The translations under genes were made by a program, and so were the position numbers. A stretch of 64,000 nt of DNA from a virus (lineage: Duplodnaviria > Caudoviricetes): positions 29,508 to 93,507 of IMG/VR virus record IMGVR_UViG_3300030613_000008, one strand, 5' to 3'. Numbering within the stretch: the first letter of the stretch is position 1; the number at the start of each line of letters is the position of its first letter. Of this stretch, positions 30,444 to 51,446 are shown piece after piece. A model generated the notes under the pieces. The model did not search any database, had not been told where the DNA came from, and worked only from the letters and a program-made list of their open reading frames with translations.

Positions 30444-30565
30444 GTGCAATGCAGAACAATACTGGTCAGATTCTCCGATCGAAGCATCTGCGGGTAGACC
30501 CTCCCAAGGTTCTGCATTGCACCGCAGGTGCTTCGTTCAGAGAAGCTGACACGTTTGGAGGGTTC
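30444..30565 (+). ncRNA. C4/CI-like antisense hairpin in the replication-operon leader
   Basis: 29-bp stem 30465-30493/30522-30550; loop complementary to 30444-30457 (14/14) and to RBS 30555-30565. Confidence 0.65.
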
Positions 30566-30569
30566 GACG

Positions 30570-30737
30570 ATGGCCGAGTCACACGCTGAAATCCAGGCAC
30601 AACTCGAAGCCGCGAACCTGCGCTTGATAGAGAAGCGGCGGGCGCTCGGGATACGAGACGACCGGCCGGTTCACGTCGGCGACGTCGTTGGCGACGTGCT
30701 CGCGGACCTGCGGCGGGAATCGGAGGAGGGGAGATGA
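30570..30737 (+). CDS. Small protein coupled to the replication initiator
   Basis: RBS GGAGG, ATG 30570, ATGA overlap with the next gene. Confidence 0.6.
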   Translation: MAESHAEIQAQLEAANLRLIEKRRALGIRDDRPVHVGDVVGDVLADLRRESEEGR

Positions 30738-31828
30738 CCTCTCAACGCGAACCGTTCACCTGTCTCTACCGGGGCATCTGGAACGATGACAAGTTTTGGC
30801 TGCGCTCGGAACTCGGGCAGCGGGTTTACCTCTACGTCCTGTCCACTCCTCTCGGTAACGGGCTTGGCTGTTTCAAGGCCGGGATGGCGGCGATGGCCGA
30901 GGACCTTCGAATGTTGCCGTCAAGGTTCGCCGAAGGTTTCGGGGAAGGTTTCGATGAACGTTACGGGGAACCTTTGTTCGACTATGACGAAGGGGCTCGG
31001 GTGGTTTTCATCCCGAAGTATTTAGAACGCAACCCCCCGAGCAACCCGAACGGAATCCGGGCACTCGCCAAGGCGTTCGTTTCCATACCGGACTGCAAAC
31101 TGAAACTCGATTGCTATCAAACGGTTAAGGCGTTTGTTGAGAGGAAAAACCCAACAACAGAGGGAGGGGGAAAAACGTTCGCGCAAGCATTCGCCGAATC
31201 ATTCGCTAAACCTTCGCCGAACCATACCGCCAACGTTGACCGAACCATGCCGTTATGGTTCGAGGACTCACCAGGAATAAATACCGTTCCCGTTCCCCCT
31301 TCCGTTCCCTTGGCCGTTCCCGATACCTATACCGGGAGTGCGTGCCGCACTCCTCACGCGCCCGCGCGCCTTGAAATTGAAGATCCAAGAGGAAACGAAA
31401 ACGAGTGGGACTGGAAAGCGTTACCACCCGAACTGATAGAACAGCTTTCAATTTTGAACGGCGGGAAGAAAGACAGACACGTCGCGGCGGTTCGACTCCT
31501 CTGGTACTGGCCCGACCTTGGAGCGCAGGAAGCACAGGAACTCGCCGTCCAAACGTGCGGGCTGTACATCGACAAGGGGTTGGACATTCGAGAAGCGCTC
31601 GCGACAGCGGCCACGGACCGGCGGCGCAAGGACGGGCTACAGGGATTTGGTCGCTTCCTGTCTCGCTGGCTCGGCATCGAGTTGGACCGACAGCACAAGG
31701 CAAACCGAGCGGCAGGCGGACCCGGCATCGTCGAACCTCCGAAGAAACAAGCGGCGTGGGAAATCGAAGCGACCCGGATTCAAAAACTGTGGGATGAAAA
31801 ACATGGCAAAGAACCCGCAGCCGGTTGA
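30734..31828 (+). CDS. Phage replication initiator / replisome organiser
   Basis: IWNDDKF...VYLYVLS...GCF...MAEDL domain; directly upstream of DnaB. Confidence 0.7.
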   Translation: MTSQREPFTCLYRGIWNDDKFWLRSELGQRVYLYVLSTPLGNGLGCFKAGMAAMAEDLRMLPSRFAEGFGEGFDERYGEPLFDYDEGARVVFIPKYLERNPPSNPNGIRALAKAFVSIPDCKLKLDCYQTVKAFVERKNPTTEGGGKTFAQAFAESFAKPSPNHTANVDRTMPLWFEDSPGINTVPVPPSVPLAVPDTYTGSACRTPHAPARLEIEDPRGNENEWDWKALPPELIEQLSILNGGKKDRHVAAVRLLWYWPDLGAQEAQELAVQTCGLYIDKGLDIREALATAATDRRRKDGLQGFGRFLSRWLGIELDRQHKANRAAGGPGIVEPPKKQAAWEIEATRIQKLWDEKHGKEPAAG

Positions 31829-33209
31829 TGGCGGGCGCGTCCCGCCGCACAACCTGGAAGCCGAAGCGGCCGTGCTCGGGGCGGTGCTTCTCAACAACGC
31901 GGCCTTCCACGTGGCGGCCCCGCGTATCACGTCGGCAGACTTCTACGCCTGGAAGCACCGCTACATCTGGGATGCCATGCTCCGGCTGTCCAAGTTGGGC
32001 GAACCGATTGACGCCGTGACGGTCGGCAACGACCTGATACAAGCGGGGAACCTGGAGAAGTGCGGCGGTACCCTGGCTCTCGACGGACTGATAGAAGAGG
32101 TGGCGACCGTCGCAAACGTCGCGCACTACGCAACTATCATCGCGCGCAAGGCGGCACTCCGGCGAGTCATCTACGCGGCGCAGACCATCGTGGCGGAAGC
32201 GTTCGCGAACGGTGGTGAGGACGAAACCGTTGAGGAGTTTTTAGCGCAGTCGCGCGCTGACTTCACGGCCGCGTCCCTGTCCCTGGCTTCCACGGGCAGC
32301 GTATGCCAGTCGGCGAGTCAAGGAATGCACGACCTATTCAACGCCTTGGAGGCGGGTAAGCCCATCGTCGAGACGTTGCCAATAGGGTTCGGCGGGGTGC
32401 GGATTCCGAGGGGCACGCCAACGGTCATCGGCGGTAGACCCTCAAACGGAAAGAGTGTTTGCGCCATGACGGCAGCTCGGAACCTAGCGACGCAAGGGCG
32501 GAGCGGCATTTACTTCTCGCTTGAGGAGACATCGCGGGTTCAGTGGGCGCGGCTTGCGTGCCAGATGTCGGGCATCGCGGCCAAACGAATCATCGAATGC
32601 GACGTGCGAGGCAACGAATTCAAGGTGCTCTCGGACGCGGCGAGCGAGGCGGCCCGGTTCAACCTCTACCTGTGTGACCGAACGGGCGTCGACTCCATGT
32701 TCGTCCGGCAAGAAGCGGCGGCGCACAAGGAAAGGCACGGCCTGGATTTTGTGGTCGTCGATTACATCCAACTCATCCGCGAGAAGGAGCGATCGGGGCA
32801 GGCGCGACACGAGCGGTTCGCAGAAGCCATGCAAGGGCTTGTGGACCTCGCGCGAGAACTGGACATCGCGGTTATCGTCGTTTCGCAGATTCGGCGGAGT
32901 GAATTCAACCCCAGCAAAGAACCGCCACCGCCGAGCATCGAACAACTGAAAGAGTCGGGCGAAATCGAGCAAGCGGCGAAACTCATTCTGCTTTTGCACT
33001 ACCCCTACTTCTACACAAAGAGCATCGAGGGGGCGGAGCAGAAGCCGAACGCCTTGCGGATGGACATCGCGAAGGACAGCATCGGAGAAGGCGGGGTGCG
33101 GATGCTTCACGCCGTCATGCCTCGCCTGTGGGTGGGAGACGTGGAGACCGTATTCGAGCCGGGGCAACCGGGCGAGACGTATCGAGAGAATAGGCCGGGG
33201 GAGTATTGA
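31803..33209 (+). CDS. dnaB: Replicative DNA helicase
   Basis: PPHNLEAEAAVLGAVLL, GGRPSNGKS, YFSLE, VVVDYIQL, SQIRR, LKESGEIEQAA. Confidence 0.95.
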   Translation: MAKNPQPVDGGRVPPHNLEAEAAVLGAVLLNNAAFHVAAPRITSADFYAWKHRYIWDAMLRLSKLGEPIDAVTVGNDLIQAGNLEKCGGTLALDGLIEEVATVANVAHYATIIARKAALRRVIYAAQTIVAEAFANGGEDETVEEFLAQSRADFTAASLSLASTGSVCQSASQGMHDLFNALEAGKPIVETLPIGFGGVRIPRGTPTVIGGRPSNGKSVCAMTAARNLATQGRSGIYFSLEETSRVQWARLACQMSGIAAKRIIECDVRGNEFKVLSDAASEAARFNLYLCDRTGVDSMFVRQEAAAHKERHGLDFVVVDYIQLIREKERSGQARHERFAEAMQGLVDLARELDIAVIVVSQIRRSEFNPSKEPPPPSIEQLKESGEIEQAAKLILLLHYPYFYTKSIEGAEQKPNALRMDIAKDSIGEGGVRMLHAVMPRLWVGDVETVFEPGQPGETYRENRPGEY

Positions 33210-33259
33210 GGTCGCGGGACTGACATACCCGAGGCTCCCGTGGTAGAATCTGGCGAAAG

Positions 33260-34060
33260 GTGCAACGGATGACGAACACTTGTATCATGGTCGGCGGTTC
33301 CCCGGTGGACATCGGCATCCCTGTTATTCGGTGGACCGACCCCGGCGGGTTCGACGGCTACACGACCAAGGCCGTGACCGTAGAGGACCGCAAGACGGGG
33401 AAGGACCGGACCATCAAGGGACCGCGCTACAGCGCCCGCAAGGCGGGGCTGGCCTCGGTGTCGCAGTTGTTCGTGCATCACTCGGGGGGGGACGGGAAGA
33501 ACCCCTCCGGCATGTACCAGACGCTTTGGATGGACCGTGGGCTATCGGTCCAGTTCGCCATCGAGGACGACGGCCGGGTGTACCAGTTTCTTGACGCGGT
33601 GGAATGCGCTTGGCACGCGGGGGCTCATAACGGGATTTCGGTGGGCGCGGAGTTGTGCCTGTTCCCGGACGCGGCGGCTGACCCGGACTACTACAGCCCG
33701 GCGAATTGCAAGCGGCGGAACAACCTACCACATGCCACCCGGTACGAGACGTTACAGGGCTCGCCACGCAAGGTGTACGTCATGCCGGACGTCCAGGTTG
33801 ACGCCTGCGCTCGGGTCATGGCGGGCGTGTGGGCAGCCGTGACGAAGGCGCGGGGCGAGACGACCACGGCCCCGATGTTCCCGCGCGTCGGCGGGGTGAT
33901 TCCGCGAGAGGTCATCACGAACTCGAAAGAGCACGTCGGGATGATAGGGCATCTGCACGCGACAACGAAGAAGTTCGATCCTGCCGGATGCGACATGGAA
34001 GGAATGGAGCGCCTTTGCGGCTTGTACGCAGCGGCGTTTCGCACAGCGCTAGGAGGTTAG
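33260..34060 (+). CDS. N-acetylmuramoyl-L-alanine amidase (endolysin)
   Basis: FVHHS, LSVQFAIEDDGRVYQ, AWHAG.HN..SVGAE, IGH, KFDP; upstream CTGACA/TGGTAGAAT promoter. Confidence 0.9.
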   Translation: MQRMTNTCIMVGGSPVDIGIPVIRWTDPGGFDGYTTKAVTVEDRKTGKDRTIKGPRYSARKAGLASVSQLFVHHSGGDGKNPSGMYQTLWMDRGLSVQFAIEDDGRVYQFLDAVECAWHAGAHNGISVGAELCLFPDAAADPDYYSPANCKRRNNLPHATRYETLQGSPRKVYVMPDVQVDACARVMAGVWAAVTKARGETTTAPMFPRVGGVIPREVITNSKEHVGMIGHLHATTKKFDPAGCDMEGMERLCGLYAAAFRTALGG

Positions 34061-34062
34061 TT

Positions 34063-34902
34063 TTGCTTGACGAATACTTGAAGCAAAAGAAACAGGCGGA
34101 GCACGAACGGCGCGTCAAGCGCGAGAAGCGCGAGATGCTGATAATGGGGGTGGTGTTGGTTGTGGCGGCCATCGTCGCGGCGTGTCTGTTCTACGCCTCG
34201 CGAGCGGACGCGTCGGCTGAAACAGAGTTGACCCACAAGGGGAAGGCTTGGGTAGTGAAAGCAGGGCGCGCATTCGCGGCAATTACGCGGCGCGAATCTC
34301 CGAAACAGTGGTACGACTGCGGCGAGTTGACGCCGACCGATCAGTGGAATGCTCGCGGGGAGCGCATCGCAGAAGCCGCCTTGCTTGCGATGAAGCGGAA
34401 CAGCCTGCACGTTGACCCCATGGGCCTTCTCGCGGTCGCCTGGAATGAGAGTCGCGGAAACGCTTGCTCCATCGGCCCTCGCACCCGAGCGCGAGCCGAG
34501 AAGATGGGGCTCCTACCAGCCGGGAAGACGTGGCGAGAGTACACCCGAGCGGACGTGCTGGCCGTGCTCGACAACCCAAAGTGGAAGGAGCGCGGCAACG
34601 TGGCGGACGTTGGCGTCTGGCAAGACGTCTATCCGCCCTACGCGCGCATTCTCGACGACAGCGGCGACTTGACGTGCTTGCGTCCGAAGAACGTCCGCTG
34701 TCGCATCCCGCGCACGTCCGAGCTTGTGACCGTCGAGACGAGCGCCGAAGTGGGGGTTCACGGGATGCTTGTGCGCTACTTCCATTTTCGGACTCGCGAG
34801 CCGTGGTTGTACTGGCCCTGGACGATTCGGGACAGCTACAGCCGGGCGGTTAAGGCGACAATTAAGGCGCTGAATGACGAAATGAAAAAGGGGAAAGCAT
34901 GA
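34063..34902 (+). CDS. Membrane-anchored lytic transglycosylase-like protein
   Basis: N-terminal TM; LLAVAWNESRGN and DVGVWQ SLT-like motifs. Confidence 0.6.
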   Translation: MLDEYLKQKKQAEHERRVKREKREMLIMGVVLVVAAIVAACLFYASRADASAETELTHKGKAWVVKAGRAFAAITRRESPKQWYDCGELTPTDQWNARGERIAEAALLAMKRNSLHVDPMGLLAVAWNESRGNACSIGPRTRARAEKMGLLPAGKTWREYTRADVLAVLDNPKWKERGNVADVGVWQDVYPPYARILDDSGDLTCLRPKNVRCRIPRTSELVTVETSAEVGVHGMLVRYFHFRTREPWLYWPWTIRDSYSRAVKATIKALNDEMKKGKA

Positions 34903-35240
34903 GTGAGCAAATCGAAATCATCGTGTCCGAAGACCTGCCCTGGACGAACCGCAACGCGCCCCACCCCGGACACCGGGAGATTGAGCGCATCGTGGCGGTG
35001 TGTGAGGACAACCCGCGCGGAAACCATCCGAAGCGAGTCGTTGCCGCCAAGGTTGCGCTCGACAAGTGGATTGCCGAGAACGGCGGTCGCGTGCGGTCGC
35101 TGAACCCGACGAAGAACGACGACGGGTCGCCCGGCTTCCTCGCTGTCGTCGAGGGGTACAAGCCGCTACCGAGGCAGCGGCCGGTGGCGAGGGCCGGGGT
35201 GCATGCGCCAGCGCCGAACCGGCTGGTCAAGGGCAGGTAG
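34899..35240 (+). CDS. Hypothetical protein
   Basis: ATGA-coupled ORF. Confidence 0.5.
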   Translation: MSEQIEIIVSEDLPWTNRNAPHPGHREIERIVAVCEDNPRGNHPKRVVAAKVALDKWIAENGGRVRSLNPTKNDDGSPGFLAVVEGYKPLPRQRPVARAGVHAPAPNRLVKGR

Positions 35241-35243
35241 CCC

Positions 35244-35678
35244 GTGGCAACCGACCCCAACCGCCTCGCCCTGCTACGTCGCCTGTGCGACCTCGTGGGT
35301 GACCCAGAAGCTCCCTACGCCCACTCCATCCACGCGGAGCCGGGGCAGGTCTACGCGAGCAACGGGCCGCCCTTCCCGCCGCTCACGGTAATCGATTCGA
35401 CAACGACGCCCATCAAAGAGTTGATGTACCACCGGCAGACGGTGGCCGTAGAAATCCACCCCGGCGAGGAGCCCGAGCGCATCTCGGTCAACCGCATGGT
35501 CGGCGTGCTAGAGGACGGTCGAGAGGTGTGCATGGGCGAGGTGTGGGCGCTCCCGGACGTCATGTTGACGGCGGCCGAGCGCGGGCCGGTGAAGTGCGCG
35601 GCGTGCGGGATACTGGTCAGGGAGCTCCCCGTGTTCGATGACGCGGGGCTGGCCTACCACAAGGGGTGCGTGGGATGA
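35244..35678 (+). CDS. Hypothetical protein with C-terminal Zn finger
   Basis: CAACG...YHKGC. Confidence 0.5.
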   Translation: MATDPNRLALLRRLCDLVGDPEAPYAHSIHAEPGQVYASNGPPFPPLTVIDSTTTPIKELMYHRQTVAVEIHPGEEPERISVNRMVGVLEDGREVCMGEVWALPDVMLTAAERGPVKCAACGILVRELPVFDDAGLAYHKGCVG

Positions 35679-36025
35679 CGACCAAAGCGGACATCATCGC
35701 GGCGGTGCAAGCGGCGGCGGACGCCTACTACGTCGCCGACCCTGTGACGGGCGCGTCGGTAAAGCTCGGGCTCGGGTCCACCGGAACGGTCGTGACGATC
35801 GCGGGGCAGAAGTTCGACAGCGGCGCGGCGTGGGGGCCGGAGCCCGCCGCCATCCCGTGCCAGGTGGAAGGGCTCGCGGACTATCTGGACGCGGCGGGGC
35901 TCGGGAATATGACCGCGTTTCACGACAAGATTAACGAGCTTGTGGCGGCTCACGGACAGCTTGTCGCCGACTACAACGGCGGTATCGTCCCGACCACGGC
36001 CCTCCCTGTTTTGCCCCTCCCGTAG
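35675..36025 (+). CDS. Hypothetical protein
   Basis: ATGA-coupled ORF. Confidence 0.55.
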   Translation: MTTKADIIAAVQAAADAYYVADPVTGASVKLGLGSTGTVVTIAGQKFDSGAAWGPEPAAIPCQVEGLADYLDAAGLGNMTAFHDKINELVAAHGQLVADYNGGIVPTTALPVLPLP

Positions 36026-36103
36026 CGTCCCGACCAGCAACGGCGCGGGTTTGCGGGGCTGAAAAAAAACGACATAGGCCGTGTCGATTTTGCTGTTTCC
36101 GCC

Positions 36104-36137
36104 TTGACAGGCGCAAGGCGAGGCGCTATATATAGAG
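36104..36137 (+). promoter_or_regulatory. Strong sigma70-like promoter, copy 1
   Basis: TTGACA-17 nt-TATATA; shares AGGCGCTATATATAGAG with 49969. Confidence 0.8.
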
Positions 36138-36165
36138 CATGGGCAGCGAGAAAAAGGAGACGCAA

Positions 36166-36381
36166 ATGAAGATTCAGATTTGGAGTGGCGAGGGGGACGG
36201 ACCGGGAACGTGCGAGACGTACACGGCCGAAGAGTCGCACACCATGACGTGGCGCAAGTTGACCGCGCGTCTGACCCGCGAGCGCTGTGGTGGCGACCGA
36301 TGGGCCAAGGCGACGTGGGAGGACGGAGAGCCGGTTGTGCCGTCGCAGTTGGACCAGCGCCGCAGGTACGGTAGCAGGTAG
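36166..36381 (+). CDS. Small early protein
   Basis: AAAAAGGAGA RBS. Confidence 0.65.
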   Translation: MKIQIWSGEGDGPGTCETYTAEESHTMTWRKLTARLTRERCGGDRWAKATWEDGEPVVPSQLDQRRRYGSR

Positions 36382-36405
36382 TCCGAACGAAAAAGGAGAA
36401 TCACG

Positions 36406-36627
36406 ATGACCAAGCAACTGTCACACTACATTGTCGGGCGCACGGTGCGCGTGTTCACTGACCCACTCACGCGGAAGGACGAAGAGGGGACCGGAACGGT
36501 GAAGAAGATACTGCAAACGCCGGAGCAGACGGGCGTCACGGGGCAGTATTACGTCGAGGTGACATTCGGCGGCGAGCGCGCCCGATACGGTCGGTTCGTC
36601 AACGTCGGCGACGTGTTCGGGGTCTGA
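36406..36627 (+). CDS. Small SH3-like early protein
   Basis: AAAAAGGAGA RBS; VGRTVRV..GTGTV..YYVEVTF. Confidence 0.65.
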   Translation: MTKQLSHYIVGRTVRVFTDPLTRKDEEGTGTVKKILQTPEQTGVTGQYYVEVTFGGERARYGRFVNVGDVFGV

Positions 36628-36636
36628 GCACAACCC

Positions 36637-36680
36637 TCCCCGCCAGCCGCAGCCGGGTGCGAGCCCCGACCGGGGAGCCA
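36637..36680 (+). ncRNA. tRNA-like minihelix (acceptor-like stem, T-arm, GCCA)
   Basis: TCCCCG/CGGGGA stem, CGGG-TGCGAGC-CCCG arm, ends GCCA; no D or anticodon arm. Confidence 0.35.
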
Positions 36681-36706
36681 GTGACCGAACGAAAAAGGAG
36701 AACCCC

Positions 36707-37174
36707 ATGAGCAACAACATGAGCGCGGTTGAGATGCTGGCGACCTCGAAAGCGGTCGCGGAAAAGAACGTGAAGGCGGCGCGGTCGGCAATGGACCCCG
36801 GCACCTATCCGGTTGACGTGACGGTTCGCCTGTCGGGCGCGGTCACGGTCGGCGAGGATACGGACAAGGCTTCGACGTCCAGTCTCGTCTCCGAAGCGTT
36901 CCTGATTTTGGCCCTCAAGATGAGCGGTTGCACCCGCGAGCGGTCCATCCAAATCATCGAGGGGCTGGCGAGCGAGTTCGTCGGCAGCGCGGACAGGGAC
37001 GCGGCGAAGGCGGCTCGGGATGCGGCGGTCGCGGAGTTCGACGCGGACGGCGCGATGCGCGCGTTGTTCACCGGGCTCAAGGCGAGAATGCCCCGCACGC
37101 CGGTCAGCGGCGCGGTCAAGTTCGTGGGCGAGGTGGAAGTCATCGCAGCCGCGAGCGCCGAGAAGGCTGCGTAG
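36707..37174 (+). CDS. Hypothetical early protein
   Basis: AAAAAGGAGA RBS. Confidence 0.65.
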   Translation: MSNNMSAVEMLATSKAVAEKNVKAARSAMDPGTYPVDVTVRLSGAVTVGEDTDKASTSSLVSEAFLILALKMSGCTRERSIQIIEGLASEFVGSADRDAAKAARDAAVAEFDADGAMRALFTGLKARMPRTPVSGAVKFVGEVEVIAAASAEKAA

Positions 37175-37186
37175 TCTCCATCCCGT

Positions 37187-37215
37187 TTGACAAATCCAAC
37201 CGTCGGCCGTACATT
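37187..37215 (+). promoter_or_regulatory. Sigma70-like promoter
   Basis: TTGACA-17 nt-TACATT. Confidence 0.7.
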
Positions 37216-37223
37216 GCAATCAT

Positions 37224-37320
37224 GCTTCGCGCCTCCCAAGAAGCTCCCGACGGGCCACACGAGAGTCCCCCCACTCCCGTTGTCCACCTCACGTCGAGGG
37301 CTTCTTAGGGGGCGTGAGGC
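37224..37320 (+). ncRNA. Long leader hairpin carrying anti-GAGGTGGAC sequence
   Basis: 29-bp stem 37224-37252/37292-37320 with 4 G-U and 2 C-A; loop contains GTTGTCCACCTCA. Confidence 0.65.
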
Positions 37321-37333
37321 CGCAAGGGGATTC

Positions 37334-37876
37334 ATGCCGCACCGCTCTAAAGCCTTCCTCGCCTTCGTCCACACCGCGCGTCGTGACGGCCTGTGCGTGG
37401 CGTGCGAGTCGCGGACGTGGAGCCAACTTCACCATTTTGGATCCGATGGCGGCGCGGGGCTCAAGCCGTCGGACTATCTGGTTGTGCGGTTGTGCCGGGA
37501 GTGTCACGCGGATTCGGTCTCCGGACGAAAAATTCTGGCAATGCGCCGAGATGGGTTCGACCAGATGGCGGCCGACTATCTCGCCGACGCGGCGGACTCC
37601 CTGTCCCTGTGGTCCGCGCACCTCGAAAGCCGCCTTGCCGAATCCGAGGCGAACGGATGCGCTCGTGACGAGCTGGTCACGTGGCTCATGGATTACGACG
37701 CAACCGACCTGGCAGGCGCGGAGGCGTGGCTTCTCGCGTGGGCGCACCGTCGGCACGCGAACGCGCTAGAAGGGTTCTGCGAGGCGTTGGGGGAGGTTGT
37801 GAAGGCGGACAGTCTGGAAGGCGCGCGGTTCACCGCGGACCGGGCGCTAAAGGCGTGGCTTCCCGGTCAAACTTGA
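37334..37876 (+). CDS. DUF968/NinG-like His-Cys nuclease-fold protein
   Basis: RSKAFLAFV..CVAC..HH..GAGLKPSD..VRLCRECH. Confidence 0.7.
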   Translation: MPHRSKAFLAFVHTARRDGLCVACESRTWSQLHHFGSDGGAGLKPSDYLVVRLCRECHADSVSGRKILAMRRDGFDQMAADYLADAADSLSLWSAHLESRLAESEANGCARDELVTWLMDYDATDLAGAEAWLLAWAHRRHANALEGFCEALGEVVKADSLEGARFTADRALKAWLPGQT

Positions 37877-37907
37877 AAATCATTTCCGATTCTGATACTC
37901 ATTGAAA

Positions 37908-38949: not shown

Positions 38950-38984
38950 TTCGCGGGTGTGCTTACAAAACGTAACAACAAAAC

Positions 38985-39038: not shown

Positions 39039-39056
39039 ACAACGAGGAGGAGCAAG

Positions 39057-39929: not shown

Positions 39930-39944
39930 CACTGAGGTGGACGC

Positions 39945-40202
39945 ATGATACGAAATCGAAAACTGAAAGTTTGGAACGGCCTAGTTTGGTTGAATCGAAA
40001 ACAGATTTCTTCTTCCATCTGTGCGTACTCTCAGAAGGACGCCGTGAACCTGCTAAACGAACTCGGATTCAGTTTCACACTCGGAGAGTTTCGAGACTAT
40101 TGGCCGCCGTGCTGGGGCAACTCCATGGACGGGATAGAGCCCGAGCGCGGGCTGTGGATTGAAATGGAGCGCGGCAAGCCGGAGCGATTCGTGCGCGCGT
40201 AA
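39945..40202 (+). CDS. Hypothetical protein flanked by a 12-bp direct repeat
   Basis: ACTGAGGTGGAC at 39931 and 40202. Confidence 0.6.
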   Translation: MIRNRKLKVWNGLVWLNRKQISSSICAYSQKDAVNLLNELGFSFTLGEFRDYWPPCWGNSMDGIEPERGLWIEMERGKPERFVRA

Positions 40203-40232
40203 CTGAGGTGGACAAGTCGGAAGGGGATTGCA

Positions 40233-41108
40233 GTGTCGAACTATCTCGAATTTCTGTCGGCGAAAACTCACCAAGGGTGCGAACACGGATTCGAACCGCT
40301 GTGGCTACCTAAGGTGCTTGCATTTGTGTTCTTCTTTTGTGTGACATGGTCCACAGAGGGATACAAGGTTGCTCAATGCGTTGGCTTTTACGTAGGAACC
40401 ATTGGTGAAGCAGCGGAATGGTATTCGATGGTGAACATCAAGGGCACGCCTGAGTTCGGATTCCTTTCTACCACATTGTTGGCAGGAATGTCCATCGCGC
40501 CTGCGAGCCTCCCTGGATTGTCTAATCCAATTCGGTCCATAATAGTATTGTTTGCCACCTCTCCAGCAAGGATTGTTGGAAGCCCTCCAATTCTCAGATT
40601 TCCATTTACCGAAGCATGCTCTGGAACAGAATTGTCGAGTACGATCCCTAGCGTGCCAACGGGGACGCATAAAATGATCTCCGCACACTTCACACATGAC
40701 TTCGATGCGTTCATCCTTGGGGGATGCACGACCAGTGAATGCGGATGCCATACACACCCTAGAGCAGTATTTACCAAGGGCGGATGGTGGCTTATAGAAA
40801 GACTCAGAACATACTGGACATGTTTTGTAGATGCCTTTCTTGGGAGGTCCACTAATCCAGTATTTTACTCGTTTCATAAAAAGATAATTGCACAATTACA
40901 CGATCATGTCAACACACTTGCACTCGGCTCGGAGTGCTACGGCGCCGTCATCAACGGTCGCAAGGCCATCGGTATCGAACTCAAGGAATCGTACTATCGG
41001 CAGATGGTGAAGAACGTCGCCGAAGGTGCGAAGACGGGGCGCGGATCCGAGCAAGTTCTTTTGCCGGGAGTCATCCCGACCGAGCCCATGATGGAGGCTC
41101 CCGAATGA
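40233..41108 (+). pseudogene. Chimeric remnant: helicase-like N-terminus + antisense HNH + DNA methyltransferase C-terminus
   Basis: Starts MSNYLEFLSAKTHQGCEHGFEPLWLP, ends GSECYGAVINGRKAIGIELKESYYRQMVKN; middle is the reverse of an HNH gene. Confidence 0.6.
40305..40895 (-). CDS. HNH endonuclease with two Cys-rich Zn domains
   Basis: CPVC..YCSRVC, CEVC..FCSRAC, NNPCWRGG, RDGHSCQQCG..DVHH..NL..LC..CH; AT-richer; own TTGACA upstream. Confidence 0.9.
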   Translation of the reverse strand: MCNYLFMKRVKYWISGPPKKGIYKTCPVCSESFYKPPSALGKYCSRVCMASAFTGRASPKDERIEVMCEVCGDHFMRPRWHARDRTRQFCSRACFGKWKSENWRASNNPCWRGGKQYYYGPNWIRQSREARRRDGHSCQQCGRKESELRRALDVHHRIPFRCFTNGSYVKANALSNLVSLCGPCHTKEEHKCKHLR

Positions 41109-43799: not shown

Positions 43800-43802
43800 G
43801 AA

Positions 43803-44069: not shown

Positions 44070-44562
44070 GAAATTCCGCCGCATCATGAACGGACTCGCC
44101 GACCAACTGGAAGCGGCGTTGCATGACGAGGCGTTGAGTGCAGGCGAAAAGCGGGTCGCGAAGACCGTGCAAGACCAGATGGACGCGGCGTATTTCGACA
44201 TGCGACACGAGGGTGTCTGTCAAGAAATCGCCGAAGAGTGCGACCGTCTCCGCGCCGAGAACGCCGAACTGCGCACCTCTCTTGCGGGCTGGGTTGCGTC
44301 GCACTCGCCGGGGCCGATGCCCGAGTGCGTGACGATAACAAACGCGGGGGAGTGGACGGACTCGGACGGGCGACCGTGCATAATCGACATGGGCACGGCA
44401 CCCGCGCCGTTCACCCTTGTCGAGACGACGAACCGAACGTGCCGGGAGTGCGAGCACTGGCGAGGCGAAAACATGTGGGTCGGGTCGCCTTGCGCGGTTG
44501 GCCTGGAAGCGGGAGAAGCGCCGACGTGTCCGAGATACCAAAGGGTTGCCGAGATACTGTGA
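44059..44562 (+). CDS. Hypothetical protein
   Basis: Coiled coil and CRECEHW. Confidence 0.5.
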   Translation: MDAEKFRRIMNGLADQLEAALHDEALSAGEKRVAKTVQDQMDAAYFDMRHEGVCQEIAEECDRLRAENAELRTSLAGWVASHSPGPMPECVTITNAGEWTDSDGRPCIIDMGTAPAPFTLVETTNRTCRECEHWRGENMWVGSPCAVGLEAGEAPTCPRYQRVAEIL

Positions 44563-44798
44563 AGCGCACGGCTCAAGTCATCGTCCGCCTGTCGCTCGCC
44601 GAGAAGACGACGCTACAGGGCAAGGCCCGCGCGGCCGGGATGACGGTATCGGATTACGCCCGGACTGCCCTGCTTTGTGACGAGGCGGGTCTAGTTGACG
44701 AATTGGGCCGGGTTCGAGCGCTAGCCGACTCCGCGCTAGAGCGGGCGAAGGAGGCCGACAGGAGGGCGCTCAGGGCGCTTACGATGGGAAATGGGTAA
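44559..44798 (+). CDS. Ribbon-helix-helix (MobC-like) protein
   Basis: VIVRLS.AEK..L..KARAAGMTVSDYAR. Confidence 0.75.
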   Translation: MKRTAQVIVRLSLAEKTTLQGKARAAGMTVSDYARTALLCDEAGLVDELGRVRALADSALERAKEADRRALRALTMGNG

Positions 44799-44801
44799 AA
44801 C

Positions 44802-45062
44802 ATGAAGATGAGTGAGAAACGAAGGTTGGAATTGTGGAGAATAACTCAAGACACACAAACCGAAATGATTGAAATACACTTCATGGAACTCCGCGAATTG
44901 CTTTGCATGGCGGAGAGGTCTGCCAGACTGGCGAGATCAGACAAGGTTCGGGCTGGCAAAGTGGGCGGACCTGCCAGGGCGGCGAAATTGTCGGCAGAGC
45001 GACGAAGCGAAATCGGCAAGATGGGAGCAGCCGCAGCGAAGAAAAACAGGCTGGAGAGATGA
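44802..45062 (+). CDS. Small protein with GGxARAAKLSxERRSEI motif
   Basis: Motif visible; AT-richer codons. Confidence 0.55.
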   Translation: MKMSEKRRLELWRITQDTQTEMIEIHFMELRELLCMAERSARLARSDKVRAGKVGGPARAAKLSAERRSEIGKMGAAAAKKNRLER

Positions 45063-45271
45063 CGCCAAAGAGAATCAAGGAAATCCGGGAGTCTCTCGAC
45101 TCCGGCTACGACAAGGTGCAATCCGCCATGGTCATTGCGGCCGAACTTCGCGACCTCCTCACCACGGCAGACGAGGCGGCACGGCTACGGGCTGAGAACG
45201 CCCAGCTAGTTGCCGCGAATGAACAGTGGCGGTGCGACGCGATAGCGCGAGAGCAGGGGCGGACGCGATGA
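45059..45271 (+). CDS. Hypothetical protein
   Basis: ATGA-coupled. Confidence 0.5.
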   Translation: MTPKRIKEIRESLDSGYDKVQSAMVIAAELRDLLTTADEAARLRAENAQLVAANEQWRCDAIAREQGRTR

Positions 45272-45510
45272 CCACGGCCCAAACCCTCTTCGGCCTCGTG
45301 TACCTCGCGATCGGCGTGGCGCTCGTCATCGGGATGGAGCGGGCGGTCAGGCGGGCGGACGTCCAGGTGGACCCCGTGGCGGGCTCGCGAGACGACGGAA
45401 TGACGGTGCTCGGGTTCCTGCTCATCGTGACGCTGTGGCCGGTGTATCTCGGGTGTAGTACAATCCTGTGGGCGCTCGCCAGAATGCGCGGGAGAGGTGA
45501 CGACCGATGA
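45268..45510 (+). CDS. Small two-TM membrane protein
   Basis: Two hydrophobic stretches. Confidence 0.55.
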   Translation: MTTAQTLFGLVYLAIGVALVIGMERAVRRADVQVDPVAGSRDDGMTVLGFLLIVTLWPVYLGCSTILWALARMRGRGDDR

Positions 45511-45851
45511 AGAAACTGAAGCCAACGACAGACAAGCCGACGGTGCCGGGCACGGACCTCGCGATACTGCCAGCGCTCGTGCCGCTTCTCGTGCCCATCG
45601 AGGACGTACACCCGGACCCGGCGAACCCACGCATCACGCGCGACCTTGACACGTTGAAGGCGAGTTTGCGTCGGTTTGGCGTGCGGAAGCCGATTGTGGC
45701 GAACTCGCGCGACGCGCGGTCCGGAAGCTCTACGGCCAGTCGTGCCGGTGGTGGTCGGACTCCGGCCTCGGGCTCTACTACGGTCAGGTGGTCGAGCGCG
45801 ACGGGAATTGCGTCACGTACCGCCTGCGCTGCGACGTCGAGTAGGCCATGA
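45507..45851 (+). pseudogene. Truncated ParB/Srx N-terminal domain fused out of frame to another gene tail
   Basis: VPIEDVHPDPANPR...LKASLRRFG..KPIVAN then loses similarity before the expected GHxR motif. Confidence 0.6.
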
Positions 45852-46570
45852 TTTACGAACCCAAGGGACGCGCCCTCGAATACTCGCCGCTGGCCTGCAA
45901 TCTGGCTGTCGGATGTGTACACAAATGCGAATATTGCTACGGCCCCGGCGCGTTTCGCGTCGCGCCCGCCGACTGGCCCACCCCGCGCTACAAGAAAAAC
46001 GCGGTGGCTGAATTCGAGAAGGACGCGGTGAAGTTCGCAGGCGACCCGCGTGACATCCTGTTCAGCTTCGCAAGCGACCCCTACATGACAGAGGAGAGCG
46101 CCGTTACGATGGCTCAAATCCTGCCTATCGCCGAAACCAACCGCCTGCGCGTCCAGGTCCTAACCAAGAACCCGGCCCGCGCGTTGGAGGTATCAGGGGA
46201 CATCCTGGCGCGCAACGGGTGGAAGCTCGGAACTACGATTATCTTCCTGTCGGAGCAGCTTCGCGCGGAGTGGGAGCCGGGTGCGCCGTCCATCGATTCG
46301 CGCCTCGGTGCGCTCGCTCGCGCGGAAGACCTCGGCATCAAGACGTGGGTGAGCATCGAGCCGGTAGTGGACGTGGACGAAGCCATCGCGGCCATCAAGG
46401 CGGTCAAGCCGCTCGCCGACTTCATCAAGGTTGGCAAGCTGAACCACCACGCGCTCTCCAAGGAGATCGACTGGGCGGATTTCCTGTGTCGCGCGAAGGA
46501 CGCGCTCGGTAGCCATCCGCATCTCATCAAGGACGACCTCAAGAAGTTCGAGAAAGCAGGCCCCGCATGA
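45848..46570 (+). CDS. Radical SAM protein (spore-photoproduct-lyase/DUF5131-like)
   Basis: GCVHKCEYCY, SDPY, VLTK, TWVSIEP. Confidence 0.85.
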   Translation: MIYEPKGRALEYSPLACNLAVGCVHKCEYCYGPGAFRVAPADWPTPRYKKNAVAEFEKDAVKFAGDPRDILFSFASDPYMTEESAVTMAQILPIAETNRLRVQVLTKNPARALEVSGDILARNGWKLGTTIIFLSEQLRAEWEPGAPSIDSRLGALARAEDLGIKTWVSIEPVVDVDEAIAAIKAVKPLADFIKVGKLNHHALSKEIDWADFLCRAKDALGSHPHLIKDDLKKFEKAGPA

Positions 46571-46947
46571 GGGTCTTCTACGGAGCCCTCCCCGTTCCTG
46601 AGCCGCAGAATCCAAAACGCGGATGGGACAAGGCATACCGCTGGAGGACACCAACTCGGAAGCCAGTTGATGGTATTCCGTTCGATCGTGTTTGGTTTTG
46701 GAAGGTACGCCTTCCCGAGCGTTATAGACAGCCGTGCCGAGTTCTAGTGCGCGGGGCAATGAACAGTTGCCTAGTAGAATTCGAGGATGGGGAACTCGTA
46801 ATAACTAGCAGTTTCGCTGTTCGCAAGGCGAAGACAATCGGGGCGAGGATGCACGGTAGGACAGTGCGGGACGGCGTGGTATGGACAAATCAGATGGAGA
46901 AGTTAGACAGTCAAAGAAAACAGGGGAAATACGGAGGTCCCGCATGA
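46567..46947 (+). CDS. Hypothetical protein, AT-richer
   Basis: CRVLVRGAMNSCLVEFEDG. Confidence 0.55.
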   Translation: MRVFYGALPVPEPQNPKRGWDKAYRWRTPTRKPVDGIPFDRVWFWKVRLPERYRQPCRVLVRGAMNSCLVEFEDGELVITSSFAVRKAKTIGARMHGRTVRDGVVWTNQMEKLDSQRKQGKYGGPA

Positions 46948-47139
46948 CCGCTCTGAACCCTCACTGCCCTTGTGGCGGCTGGGCTATCGCATCTCGGCGA
47001 CACGCTCGCCAAGACCGGCATGACCTCGCGACAGTTCGCCGAAGCCCTCGGTGCGCGGTGGACGTGCTCTTACTGCGGGGCGGCAAGCCGGGGCGAGAGG
47101 TGCGGAAACTGCGGGGGACCGCGAGAGGGGACGTGAGAG

Positions 47140-47538
47140 ATGGACACGAACGAACGCATGGAGACGGAGCGCGACGAAGCACGCGGCAACGCTCGCATTC
47201 TGGCGCACTGTTACCAGACCGACAACCGCCCGCCTGCGCAGGTCGTCAAGGAATCGCTGGCCTACCCGGTCATGTCGGCATCGGTGCTGCACTCACGCGG
47301 ATTGCCGCAAGCATCGGAGCGCCCCGCGACCGTCCTCGATGCCGTCCGAGACTACATGTCCCGCAACGGCTACGACGCGCTGCGCCGGTCGGACGATGGC
47401 GAGGGGTGCGGTTGCTGCTTGTCCAAAGGGCTGGCCCCGTGCGCGTGTGAGATGCCGTCCGATTGTGAGATGGGGCATTGGGTGGAAGAGGACAACGACG
47501 GGGACGGCGGGGCTAGGCCGGGACCGAAACCCGCTTGA
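47140..47538 (+). CDS. Hypothetical Cys-rich protein
   Basis: NGYDAL..GCGCC..LAPC. Confidence 0.55.
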   Translation: MDTNERMETERDEARGNARILAHCYQTDNRPPAQVVKESLAYPVMSASVLHSRGLPQASERPATVLDAVRDYMSRNGYDALRRSDDGEGCGCCLSKGLAPCACEMPSDCEMGHWVEEDNDGDGGARPGPKPA

Positions 47539-47570
47539 CAACGGCCACTCGCGAGCCCTACGCTGGGGGT

Positions 47571-47765
47571 GTGGAAAGGTTAAACGATTCGCTGAAAATC
47601 AATAAGATGGTCGGCGTGAAAATGCAACAATCCGACGTGGATTACCTACGTTCGCTCGCACGCGCTTTGGATAGAAGCGTGTCGTCCACGGTCCGATTGA
47701 TAATCAGAACGGCAAGGGAACGGGGAATGGCGGGGTCCGAACAACCGAGAGGAGAGAAAACATGA
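47571..47765 (+). CDS. CopG-like ribbon-helix-helix protein
   Basis: MVGVKM..LRSLA..DRSVSSTVRLII; TTGACA at 47535. Confidence 0.65.
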   Translation: MERLNDSLKINKMVGVKMQQSDVDYLRSLARALDRSVSSTVRLIIRTARERGMAGSEQPRGEKT

Positions 47766-48103
47766 TAACGAGAGAGCAGGCGATGGGGATGAGCCTTGGT
47801 GACAAGGTGTTGGCGTGGCGTCCAGGAAGGGGAGGAAATCGTTTGGCTGAAAGCACGCCGGTCGACTTTCAGTGGGGTGTATATCTGAACACACACGAAA
47901 TCCCGAACAGAGACGGCGTTGACACCGAACACCGAATTGGATTGGCGTTCTGTGATGGGGACGTCAAGTTCTTCACTCCCGAAGATGTATTTCTTTCTTT
48001 CAACGAGGCGGCCGATTTCGTCGCGTCCGACGTTGAGAGTTTTCACGTAGAGCAGAACGGCAGGGATGCGGCGTGGCAAGCATTCTTGATGGAGAAAGCA
48101 TGA
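47762..48103 (+). CDS. Hypothetical protein
   Basis: RBS AGGAG. Confidence 0.5.
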   Translation: MITREQAMGMSLGDKVLAWRPGRGGNRLAESTPVDFQWGVYLNTHEIPNRDGVDTEHRIGLAFCDGDVKFFTPEDVFLSFNEAADFVASDVESFHVEQNGRDAAWQAFLMEKA

Positions 48104-48390
48104 CAGGGACGATTCACCACACCCTAAGTCCCGCCAGTCGCCTTGCCGCCATGGACCCCGCGTTCATGGTCTGTCTTGGCGAGGCGTCCGGTACGCCGGG
48201 GCTTGTCGCGGAGTTCGACCGGCTACAGGGGGCGAACCTATCGCGGCGCGGGTGCCCTCTGGATTTGATGATAGACGACGCGACGGGACGCATGGACGCG
48301 GACCTCGCCGCGTTCGTTGAGTTCGTGCGGGAGGCCGTGTACGAGCGGTTGCCGTCGGACGCACTGGACGGACTGAGAAGGAGCGCGTAG
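48100..48390 (+). CDS. Hypothetical protein
   Basis: ATGA-coupled. Confidence 0.55.
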   Translation: MTGTIHHTLSPASRLAAMDPAFMVCLGEASGTPGLVAEFDRLQGANLSRRGCPLDLMIDDATGRMDADLAAFVEFVREAVYERLPSDALDGLRRSA

Positions 48391-48394
48391 CCGA

Positions 48395-49048
48395 ATGACG
48401 CCCGATAGAGATGACGTGTCTCCGGCCGGGGACGATGAAGACGAGCCGAACCGGCAACCCCGCAAGAAGAAAGAGAAACGTTGGACAAAGCCGCCGATGA
48501 TAACGGTTGACATGTACAACGCCCTTTGGAAGGCGTATCAGGACGAACCGGACTATCGGAAGGCGGGGAAGGCGGCCGGGGTCAGGCTGCCCGTGGCGCG
48601 GTGGTACTGCGAGGGGGACGCCTGGCCCGCCGTGGGGTTCGTGCAGCTCGCGAGTCGGCTGAGGGCGATTCAGGGGATGGTGGCGGACATCAACGACCAC
48701 GGGACGGGGAAGTGGCGCGCGGAGCAGTTGAAGGTTTTGACCGAGGGGTTGCGTACCACGGCGGCCGGTCTGGCGATTCATCAACGCGGGGTGCGGGAGA
48801 TGGCGACGAAGGTTCAGTCGGGGGAGCTCCCGGCGGAGATGGTCGTCATGTCCAAGGAGTTCGGGCTCAAGATGGTTGTCGACGCGCACAACACGCTACT
48901 CCGCGCCGCGCTCCTCACGATGGGCGAGGCGGACTCGCTGGCCGGGACGGTGGACGCGCCGCAGCGGCTCAACTTCGCCGAGTGGACGCGGGAGGAGTGC
49001 GAGGCTTACGCGGAGCGCCAGATAGTGCCGGAGAGGTTCAAAAAATAG
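48395..49048 (+). CDS. Helical HTH protein, possibly terminase small subunit
   Basis: HTH-like KAGKAAGVRL..ARWY and C-terminal FAEWTREEC; function weakly inferred. Confidence 0.35.
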   Translation: MTPDRDDVSPAGDDEDEPNRQPRKKKEKRWTKPPMITVDMYNALWKAYQDEPDYRKAGKAAGVRLPVARWYCEGDAWPAVGFVQLASRLRAIQGMVADINDHGTGKWRAEQLKVLTEGLRTTAAGLAIHQRGVREMATKVQSGELPAEMVVMSKEFGLKMVVDAHNTLLRAALLTMGEADSLAGTVDAPQRLNFAEWTREECEAYAERQIVPERFKK

Positions 49049-49062
49049 AAGGAAGGGGAAAG

Positions 49063-49866
49063 ATGAAAGGATACATTGCTCTCACTCACGACCTGCGACA
49101 GCCGGGGTCGATGAGAAAACCTCTCTGGGACGGTTCAGTGCCGTTTGACTTGCAGACTCCAGACGCGGACATCGTCGGAGGCGGCACCACATGGAGAAAT
49201 CGTAGCGGTCTTTTCCTCTGGCCGGACGGTCACGCTGCCTTGTTGAACAGCGGTCTATGGTCAGACGGCAGGCCGTCGCGGCTCTATCGAGTAGAGGCTG
49301 AGTCTGCCACTAAGTGCGGTGATAGATATAGCGCACGCACCATCAAGGTTGTTGATGAAGTCTGTGACATCCGCCCACACGTAGAGAGGATGGCTGCCGA
49401 ACTATTTGACGATCGTTATTGTACACAGATGGTGGGAGAGCAATTGGCGTGGCACGCTGCCCTCAGGCGCGCGAAACACAACGCGGCCGTCGTTGATGCC
49501 GGTCTTAAGTCCGCCCTCATGGCGCGCGGGCTCAGCGGTTGGACACTGCGGAGGTACGACAACGCCAATGCCGCCGTCGAAGCTCACGACGCACTAGGGG
49601 TGCACACCACCGACATCGCGTTTCGCACGTGGAATACAGAGGCAGTTAGTTTTTGCGATGGAGGAAGGTCAAGCACGCAAGACTGCGACACGTTTGGCGC
49701 GTATGATGCCGATGTCGCGCTCATCGTCATGAGGAAATCATTCATGGGTGACGTTTCGTTTCGGGGCGATCTGCTAACCGTGGGCATCCGAGACGCCTAC
49801 GCGGCGGGCCTCCACGTTGCCATCCCAACCGGACCGGCAGAGTTGGGGTGGTCGATGGACGATTAA
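49063..49866 (+). CDS. Hypothetical protein
   Basis: RBS GGAAGGGG; LRRYDN...AIPTGPAELGW. Confidence 0.55.
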   Translation: MKGYIALTHDLRQPGSMRKPLWDGSVPFDLQTPDADIVGGGTTWRNRSGLFLWPDGHAALLNSGLWSDGRPSRLYRVEAESATKCGDRYSARTIKVVDEVCDIRPHVERMAAELFDDRYCTQMVGEQLAWHAALRRAKHNAAVVDAGLKSALMARGLSGWTLRRYDNANAAVEAHDALGVHTTDIAFRTWNTEAVSFCDGGRSSTQDCDTFGAYDADVALIVMRKSFMGDVSFRGDLLTVGIRDAYAAGLHVAIPTGPAELGWSMDD

Positions 49867-49968
49867 TCTACCACGCTTGTCCATTTCCCGCGCTCCAAAT
49901 CGCTACGGCCCAACGACCACGCGGGTTTTACGGGCAAGAGAAAAAGTGAAAATAGTTGTGATTCGCGC

Positions 49969-50002
49969 TTGACACGAGCAAGGATAGGCGCTATATATAG
50001 AG
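49969..50002 (+). promoter_or_regulatory. Strong sigma70-like promoter, copy 2
   Basis: TTGACA-17 nt-TATATA; AGGCGCTATATATAGAG. Confidence 0.8.
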
Positions 50003-50036
50003 AGTGAGACGGGGACAGCAAAAAGGAGAAAACATC

Positions 50037-50348
50037 ATGGGCAAGACGTACAGCGTGAATCTTTGGGGAAGCGACCCGGCACTCGACAACGACGATTGCT
50101 GGACCGGTGCCGACTTCGCCACGCGCAAAGAGGCAGAGGTCGCCTACAAGAACCCGACCCCGCACTTTTACGCGGGGGCCATGGGCAAGGTCGTGTTCGT
50201 CGAGTTGGACGGCCCGGACGTCAACGCCAAGCGGCGCGTCGCTGCCGACAGGAAGCCCGTCCGCGACCTCACGTGGCGCAACGAAATGGCGATGGAAGCC
50301 GGGATGCTTTACGGGTGCGACGGCTACAACGAGGTCATGGGCTACTAG
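50037..50348 (+). CDS. Small early protein
   Basis: AAAAAGGAGA RBS. Confidence 0.65.
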   Translation: MGKTYSVNLWGSDPALDNDDCWTGADFATRKEAEVAYKNPTPHFYAGAMGKVVFVELDGPDVNAKRRVAADRKPVRDLTWRNEMAMEAGMLYGCDGYNEVMGY

Positions 50349-50546
50349 ATGAAGGCGCGCGACGTCATCGGGAAGCGAATCACGAGGATTCGCCAGACGC
50401 GCCTTTCTCCAGGGGTGGGCCGGAGCATGGCCGTGAACATCGATTGGATTGAACTGGAAGACGGGACGCTCATCACGTTCGGAGTTGCAGAGGGAGATAG
50501 CGAATATTTCATCGAAGCGACCGCAAGAAAAAGGAGAACCCCATGA
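50349..50546 (+). CDS. Small early protein
   Basis: Abuts the previous stop. Confidence 0.55.
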   Translation: MKARDVIGKRITRIRQTRLSPGVGRSMAVNIDWIELEDGTLITFGVAEGDSEYFIEATARKRRTP

Positions 50547-50833
50547 CGACCACCAACGACCTGGAACGGGAAGAGCGCGCCTACGAGAAGACGACCGTTG
50601 ACCGCAGCGTCTACGGCAACTTCACGATTGCCGACCTGCGTGAAGCGTTCGACCGCGTGTCGCCGAAGAACTGGAAGGACCCGATCGCGTGTTCGTGCAA
50701 CGGTGGGACGGTCAACCTCGTGTGCGCGGCCATCTCGTTTTTCACGGGGTCGGTGGCCCACGTCGAAGTCGACGTGCGGACGATGACCTACTACATTGAG
50801 GCGGAGGGGTACTACGCCGCGTGCGGGTCGTGA
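50543..50833 (+). CDS. Small early protein
   Basis: AAAAAGGAGA RBS; NWKDPI...AISFFTG...AEGYY. Confidence 0.65.
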   Translation: MTTTNDLEREERAYEKTTVDRSVYGNFTIADLREAFDRVSPKNWKDPIACSCNGGTVNLVCAAISFFTGSVAHVEVDVRTMTYYIEAEGYYAACGS

Positions 50834-50893
50834 GCCGAAACCGCCTGCGGGCGGTCGCCACGGTTGGCTACCGTGGCCTGATGAGGCAGCCGA
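50834..50893 (+). ncRNA. Type II hammerhead ribozyme
   Basis: GCC-GAAA-stem III(CCGCC/GGCGG)-TC-stem I(GCCACGGT/ACCGTGGC)-CTGATGA-GGC; loop I can pair with 3' AGCCG. Confidence 0.85.
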
Positions 50894-50908
50894 AAAGGAG
50901 AGACAACG

Positions 50909-51142
50909 ATGGCATACAGGGTGAGATTGGGCGGGTCGCCGAAGGACAGCGGGGTTGTGTTATTCGACATGGACGACGCCGAGGAGGCCGCTGTGAACAT
51001 GGCCAAGCGGCGGTGCAAGGAGACGGACGACGACGCGGACACCGTGGAAATCTACGGGGAAGAGGGAACCGGCGCTGCGTGGGGTGCCTGCCCCGAGGGC
51101 GACGACGGCGCGTATTACTCGTTCATCACGGTTGAGGACTGA
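50909..51142 (+). CDS. Small acidic early protein
   Basis: GAAAAGGAGA RBS. Confidence 0.65.
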   Translation: MAYRVRLGGSPKDSGVVLFDMDDAEEAAVNMAKRRCKETDDDADTVEIYGEEGTGAAWGACPEGDDGAYYSFITVED

Positions 51143-51193
51143 CCGGAACTTGCGAATTTGCGCAAGTTCACAAATTAAGAGGGAGATTCAACG

Positions 51194-51343
51194 ATGGGAC
51201 GAAAGCTGTACAAGGTGGTGCTAGACGACGATGACCGCGCGCAGTTGGCGCGGGAGTTCGAGTTGGCTTGGCGGCAGCGGTGCGAGATGGCGGCGGCGCA
51301 GTGGGAGTTCGAGCGCGGGAGGAGAATCGCGCCGACGTTCTGA
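51194..51343 (+). CDS. Small protein (49 aa, below ORF-track cutoff)
   Basis: RBS AGAGGGAG; MGRKLYKVVLDDDDRAQLAREF. Confidence 0.5.
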   Translation: MGRKLYKVVLDDDDRAQLAREFELAWRQRCEMAAAQWEFERGRRIAPTF

Positions 51344-51354
51344 GAGGTGTCCAG

Positions 51355-51431
51355 GGTTCCCCCCTGGGCGGTGCGTCCGAGCCGGGTTAATCTCCTTTTC
51401 CTGGTTTGGGCGTACCGCCGAGGGGTGAACC
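51355..51431 (+). ncRNA. Long hairpin with anti-AAAAGGAGA loop
   Basis: 32-nt arms, 5 G-U, 2 mismatches; loop TTAATCTCCTTTT. Confidence 0.65.
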
Positions 51432-51446
51432 GAAAAGGAGAACACG

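Follow-up and report, generated by a model that had tools for sequence, protein, structure and literature searches.

The right-hand 64 kb (64,000 nucleotides) of a 93,507-bp virus record (IMG/VR IMGVR_UViG_3300030613_000008, Caudoviricetes; positions 29,508 to 93,507, hereafter the window, numbered from its first letter) contains three long RNA hairpins, HP1, HP2 and HP3, each standing directly before a ribosome-binding site (RBS). The best explanation, to which a probability of about one half may be given, is that they are unrelated, single-copy, sense-strand elements that act in cis on their own messages, and that pairing between their loops and RBSs, if there is any, is local. An earlier note on this DNA had proposed a system of parallel antisense channels in which each loop silences in trans a class of genes addressed by the sequence flanking the RBS. 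The window has a G+C content of 62%, and nearly all genes lie on the + strand; the gene calls are rough and were made in this analysis. The hairpins and the starts that follow them are:

30465-30550, + strand: HP1, a long and imperfectly paired stem-loop within the leader of a replication operon with DnaD-like and DnaB-like genes (z -4.3, -48.4 kcal/mol).
30555-30572, + strand: RBS TTGGAGGGT and ATG at 30570 of the first gene of the replication operon, 55 amino acids (aa) long.
37224-37320, + strand: HP2, with a 29-bp lower stem and a 40-nucleotide (nt) apical region (z -3.5, -55.0 kcal/mol).
37324-37336, + strand: RBS AAGGGGA and ATG at 37334, directly after HP2.
51350-51439 (core 51355-51431), + strand: HP3, a stem-loop with 30-35 pairs in the gap that separates a 49-aa from a 78-aa gene (z -5.6, -62.8 kcal/mol).
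51432-51449, + strand: RBS GAAAAGGAGA and ATG at 51447, complementary to the HP3 loop over 10 nt (9 nt in the relative described below).

All three fold as the earlier note had described. They are located in non-coding gaps of co-directional operons (30415-30569, 37175-37333 and 51344-51446), fill most of each gap, and are followed 2-6 nt beyond the stem by a Shine-Dalgarno (SD) sequence. Every shuffled version of each hairpin folds worse than the native sequence. When every long stem-loop of the 93.5-kb genome, on either strand, is ranked by energy per nucleotide, HP3 is first, HP2 second and sixth (its two strands) and HP1 eighth; the 'arm length' of the minimum-free-energy structure was useless for this ranking. 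The + strand of HP3 folds at the energy listed above versus -38.0 kcal/mol for the - strand, and the structure contains five G-U pairs. These pairs and the gap in energy between the strands thus indicate a sense-strand RNA structure, and the RNA-level, sense-strand nature of the hairpins is supported.

A single relative was located by protein scans of the virus collection, the metagenomic contig G001 (86,329 bp), which is syntenic with the window at approximately 75-89% nucleotide identity and carries many insertions and replacements. The statements on conservation rest on this one relative, which leaves much of the right end of the window, including three members of the RBS classes discussed below, uncovered. 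Covariation of the stems, which the earlier note had named as a check, is seen in two of the three hairpins. In HP2, 34 of 34 predicted pairs are kept, with seven compensatory and three one-sided changes, and in HP3, 30 of 30, with three compensatory and four one-sided changes; no pair is broken in either. This retention may be taken as good evidence for selection on the pairing, though it comes from one relative. A counterpart of HP1 was not found in the relative, where the segment is replaced by other sequence and the downstream RBS and gene are retained without the hairpin. Exact-pattern scans for the HP2 and HP3 cores, which covered virus and metagenome collections, returned no carrier beyond the 86-kb relative, and the neighbouring proteins have homologs (52-83% identity) in other contigs, which carry neither hairpin. 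Searches with covariance models built from HP2 and HP3 gave no extra copy in the window, the relative or the homolog-bearing contigs, each hairpin being single-copy.

Two of the hairpins are preceded by promoter sequences:

30411-30439, + strand: promoter-like site TTGACT-17-TAGAAA ahead of HP1, read directly, which overlaps the stop codon of the upstream gene.
37187-37215, + strand: sigma-70-like promoter TTGACA-17-TACATT, a good match to the consensus, with a predicted start 0-2 nt before the HP2 stem.

The site ahead of HP1 is weak, as position 6 of its -10 hexamer is not T, and it therefore fails the rule of the promoter scanner. Both hexamers of the HP2 promoter are kept in the relative with a different spacer, and the predicted start there lies 4-5 nt before the stem; about 680 bp with other genes separate HP2 in the relative from the gene that adjoins it in the window. 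The promoter scan found none at HP3. HP1 and HP2 are thus probably 5' leaders just downstream of sigma-70-like promoters, whereas HP3 lies between two cistrons of an early operon. The 'one design' attributed to the three hairpins consequently stands for fold and position and does not extend to context, HP1 and HP2 being promoter-proximal and HP3 intercistronic without a promoter. No terminator-like site or U-tract occurs 3' of any of the three, and the sequence after each stem is an RBS, not a T run. Rfam gave no family match for the hairpins, C4 (RF01695) included, and at E values up to 10 the three regions produced weak, generic pre-miRNA-like matches only. At the base of each hairpin, no tRNA-like end suited to RNase P was observed.

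The stems of about 30 bp would most likely serve as double-stranded processing or stability signals: RNase III-type cut sites, end-protecting stem-loops, or both. They may delimit and stabilise the messages, leaving the SD just beyond unpaired and insulated from upstream sequence. In phage lambda, the N leader is an RNase III processing hairpin. Like it and the hairpins of the T7 early region, those described here are long, imperfect stems in co-directional early-operon gaps just upstream of an RBS; unlike them, they have no sequence relation to those sites, and their processing is predicted from fold and position. The early precursor of T7 is cut at five RNase III hairpins, and the ideal substrate of the enzyme is 22 bp, or two helical turns (PMC3867540). 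With 29-35 pairs, the stems exceed this 22-bp criterion, although the rules of the host enzyme may differ.

The neighbouring operons contain further RNA elements and promoters:

36104-36132 and 49969-49997: near-identical, strong sigma-70-like promoters TTGACA-17-TATATA with a common GCAAGG..AGGCGC spacer.
36634-36680: CCCTCCCCGCC...CGGGGAGCCA, an intergenic element that is conserved and stands immediately ahead of an RBS, in the operon that ends before HP2.
50833-50895, + strand: type II hammerhead ribozyme (53.3 bits, gathering threshold 37) in the HP3 operon, preceded by a stop codon and followed by the RBS of the next gene, AAAAGGAGA.

The hammerhead, the only gathering-level Rfam match in the window (Hammerhead_II), is kept in the relative (L002 4732-4794) and occurs in like gaps in the more distant contigs L012 (8718-8780) and L015 (308-372). 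In prophages, hammerheads that border individual genes were interpreted as a means of cleaving long transcripts of the phage into messages the length of one gene (Perreault et al. 2011, PMC3088659). The HP3 region resembles such punctuated operons, the ribozyme being located one gap upstream of it and directly before an RBS, and it may do in that gap the job that is proposed here for HP3. The three hairpins differ from the hammerhead in lacking a ribozyme core, and their cleavage would require a nuclease of the host. The HP3 operon also contains a palindrome (51145-51169). Copies of the 36634-36680 element were found in L012 (~9215-9262), L014 (~675-722), L013 (~839-866) and L017 (~757-800), some of which resemble a tRNA acceptor/T-arm minihelix ending in CCA, and in L014 such an element stands ahead of the 77-aa gene that in the window is preceded by the hammerhead. 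Rfam gave no match for this element, and its five copies show little covariation; it may be a processing signal, of RNase P type or another. Since such spacer RNAs (the hammerhead, the palindrome and the 36634-36680 element) occur in the same operons, the hairpins fit a picture of operon punctuation. A bidirectional terminator-like hairpin (36070-36086) precedes the promoter at 36104-36132.

The apical regions contain the anti-RBS sequence that the earlier note had reported, modestly beyond chance. That of HP1 includes GACCCTCCCAA (30497-30507); that of HP2 carries a small CCCCCC-loop hairpin and single-stranded TGTCCACCTCA, with the loop complement GTTGTCCACCTCA at 37279-37291; and that of HP3 contains TCTCCTTTTC (51391-51400), which complements its own RBS. 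These pyrimidine-rich sequences resemble pieces of the anti-SD tail of 16S rRNA. The longest contiguous Watson-Crick complement was scored against 104 start regions, with mononucleotide shuffles as the control, and reached 10 nt for HP1, 12 nt for HP2 and 10 nt for HP3 (p about 0.03 each). Against its own RBS, the complement of HP3 (10 nt, p = 0.003) and that of HP1 (7 nt, p = 0.03) stand out, and that of HP2 is not significant. The duplex energies of the whole apical regions with about 98 start regions, which the earlier note had proposed to compare with shuffled controls, were no better than those of mononucleotide shuffles (p = 0.29, 0.71 and 0.065); pairing with G/A-rich start regions is open to any loop that is rich in C and U. 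Anti-RBS sequence is thus present in the loops, and the signal is moderate.

Where such pairing is meaningful, it would probably be local, involving HP3 with its own RBS, the only loop-RBS relation that is kept between the two phages, and HP1 by means of a competing fold. The latter involves an additional arm:

30444-30457, + strand: arm A, GTGCAATGCAGAAC, the exact 14-nt complement of A' at 30509-30522.

Pairing of A with A' competes with the long stem of HP1, in whose loop A' is located. According to prefix folding, the nascent RNA up to 30522 adopts the A:A' fold (-32.3 kcal/mol), and the long stem appears only once position 30550 has been made. In the A:A' fold the anti-SD adjoins A' and could reach the SD (predicted duplex -16.8 kcal/mol), so that HP1 is a possible switch between the two structures. 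Such local pairing might make translation self-limiting or switchable; it would not control a gene class. Leader structures of the T4 genes e, soc, 49 and I-TevI sequester the RBS in cis, the outcome being set by the transcript or the fold that is made (PMC3014915). As in these leaders, an anti-RBS is encoded in cis upstream of the start, and the competing folds of HP1 fit this pattern. The arrangement is nevertheless the opposite of that in T4, since the most stable fold here leaves the SD free and holds the anti-SD in the loop.

Several observations weigh against the cis reading. Two apical runs of HP2, CGAGAGTCCCCCCACTC (37260-37276, 17 nt) and TGTCCACCTCA (37281-37291, 11 nt), are invariant in the relative, and the HP3 loop keeps TCTCCTTT there, whereas a plain processing hairpin needs no sequence-conserved apical region. 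The apical region of HP2 as a whole, though, is not clearly more conserved than its stem (7 changes in 40 positions versus 17 in 58). The two extended RBS motifs that recur most often in the genome are also better complemented by the loops than by shuffles. HP1, finally, is dispensable in the relative, as judged from the sequence that replaces it. The RNase III sites of T7 are not known for apical sequences that mirror RBS motifs, with one case, T7 gene 1.2, in which the sequence of such a site pairs with an RBS.

The RBS motifs on which the proposed channels depended were recounted on the + strand, and the counts of the earlier note proved correct: AAAAGGAGA has 8 sites, each 5-7 nt before an ATG, GAGGTGGAC has 12 sites, about 6 of them near starts, and GGAGGGT has 8 sites, 5 of them near starts. 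The three motifs are, however, overlapping registers of one extended SD, GAAAGGAGGTGAT, complementary to the 3' end typical of bacterial 16S rRNA, and do not form distinct classes. Every 6-mer of GAAAGGAGGTGAT is enriched 8-29 times before starts, a figure that is partly circular, as the start calls used the same tail. All eight AAAAGGAGA sites are confined to two short operons of small genes, whose RBSs are all of this kind and which are headed by the two near-identical promoters listed above (36104-36132 and 49969-49997). For the majority of these genes the relative has no ortholog, though it keeps the HP3 loop; the motif precedes only one start there, that of the RBS beside HP3. A GAC extension after GAGGTG, giving GAGGTGGAC, is over-represented at starts (4 of 13 called, plus those at 53604 and 40205). 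Part of this class would reflect mosaic gene junctions, because ACTGAGGTGGAC forms a 12-bp direct repeat (39931-39942 and 40202-40213) around a window-specific gene. This gene (39945-40202, 85 aa) has a lower G+C content and looks like an insertion at an RBS junction, to judge from the relative, which has one copy of the repeat and lacks the gene.

The feature most relevant to action in trans is a candidate partner of HP2:

40204-40236, + strand: leader, SD and GTG of a SNF2-like helicase gene, which may pair with the HP2 apical region over 12+3+7+4 bp (26 bp), collinearly.

The full model of three parallel trans channels, each silencing a gene class addressed by its RBS flank, is very improbable. 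The motif counts and loop complements on which it was built are real, as is the excess of GAC after GAGGTG, and it is confronted with classes that are registers of one SD, with a AAAAGGAGA class limited to two operons and largely without orthologs where the loop is kept, with members of another class that probably derive from mosaic junctions, and with the absence of HP1 from the relative, of terminators and of any C4 or other Rfam match. The expected preference of loops for cognate starts was examined with the loop cores only: the HP2 core alone separates its class, placing the five GAGGTGGAC starts at ranks 1-5, and for HP1 and HP3, respectively, 8 and 24 starts outside the class bind as well as its weakest member. 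For two of the three hairpins, HP1 and HP3, this is the outcome that the earlier note had named as refuting its model. A narrower version, in which the hairpins are antisense regulators derived from leaders or spacers with few specific targets, HP3 acting on its own or neighbouring RBSs and HP2 on the leader of the helicase gene, which lies 3 kb downstream and is co-directional, seems rather unlikely. It would account for the contiguous complements beyond chance, the invariant HP2 apical segments and the HP2 core ranking, as well as for the helicase leader, which is identical in both phages and forms a predicted duplex with HP2 of -40.0 kcal/mol here and -35.9 kcal/mol in the relative. Chance sites in the genome reach -48.5 kcal/mol in a duplex scan, which is too noisy in this G+C-rich genome to single out targets, so that the helicase pairing is not exceptional; moreover, the sole loop difference in the relative weakens it from 12 to 11 bp without compensation, and whole loops behave like shuffles. 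The pairing may therefore be regarded as a lead only. Like the c4 antisense RNA of P1/P7 (RF01695) and the CI RNA of P4, HP2 with the helicase leader is readable as a leader RNA that complements an RBS further down its operon; unlike these, it has neither an Rfam match nor a tRNA-like RNase P end, and its complementarity is not statistically secure. In Gram-positive bacteria, small RNAs such as RNAIII, with its hairpins, and 6C RNA pair with SD regions through C- or U-rich hairpin loops and are discrete, terminated molecules. HP2 resembles them in its CCCCCC loop and differs in that no terminator, other known processing signal or Rfam match was found that would point to a discrete RNA. It is a tentative and on balance improbable idea that a long stem displaying a conserved anti-RBS sequence is a recurrent, undescribed phage design. 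Once released, the RNA would act in the manner of C4 or RNAIII, the targets of HP3 being its own RBS and those of sister genes, and the target of HP2 the helicase leader.

Two other explanations concern transcription and the DNA itself. The hairpins might be signals at the level of transcription, serving as terminators or pause sites that lack a U-tract or, in the manner of the put RNAs of HK022, as RNAs near the promoter that modify RNA polymerase. This appears distinctly unlikely. HP1 and HP2 do directly follow promoters, and in L017 (1362-1425) and L018 (1432-1485) homologs (about 60% identical) of the gene that precedes HP2 are followed by a long hairpin with a CCCCCC loop; this hairpin agrees with HP3 in its upper stem, GAGCCGGG/CCTGGTT, and in L017 it is followed by T8 as a canonical intrinsic terminator. 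Against this stand the lack of a U-tract after all three hairpins and the HP3 covariance model, which does not recover the L017 and L018 hairpins at E values up to 1; homology is thus not supported, and the likeness is a lead only. Elements acting as DNA, such as cruciforms, operators or an origin beside the replication genes, are scarcely probable. HP1 is located just upstream of the DnaD-like and DnaB-like genes and contains a perfect 14-bp inverted repeat, and HP2 folds equally well on both strands, but HP3 is strongly strand-specific by virtue of its G-U pairs, the compensatory changes include G-U intermediates, and a DNA inverted-repeat finder reports none of the three hairpins, because of their wobble pairs and bulges.

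If the cis reading is true, this group of phages would mark off its early operons by interchangeable RNA signals, be it a hairpin, a hammerhead or a structured spacer, and would offer a natural test bed for the way in which phages cut and stabilise polycistronic messages. The anti-RBS apical sequences, if functional, might represent an overlooked kind of translational control that is common in phages.

The phage DNA is present in two DNA runs of one soil metagenome sample. A search at near-identity, in which 8 kb were compared with 50,697 phage records, gave no match, indicating no close relative among deposited phages, and a search with the helicase protein returned matches at about 30% identity only. 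In a scan of bacterial genomes, DUF3560 gave matches at 29-50% identity that are spread over many phyla and thus point to no one host. No tRNA genes were found in the window.

A TnpB-like (IS605-type) piece splits the relative's copy of the 78-aa gene that follows HP3 (L002 ~5530-5900), and a full TnpB is located beside a truncated homolog of the gene upstream of HP2 in L021 (135-1328). The SNF2-like helicase gene of the window (40233-41108) has its first approximately 25 codons and its leader in common, with few differences, with a 476-aa gene of the relative, and then enters a stretch of about 600 bp of low G+C content (~40300-40900). This stretch has the look of an insertion and may be a mobile endonuclease gene encoded on the - strand.

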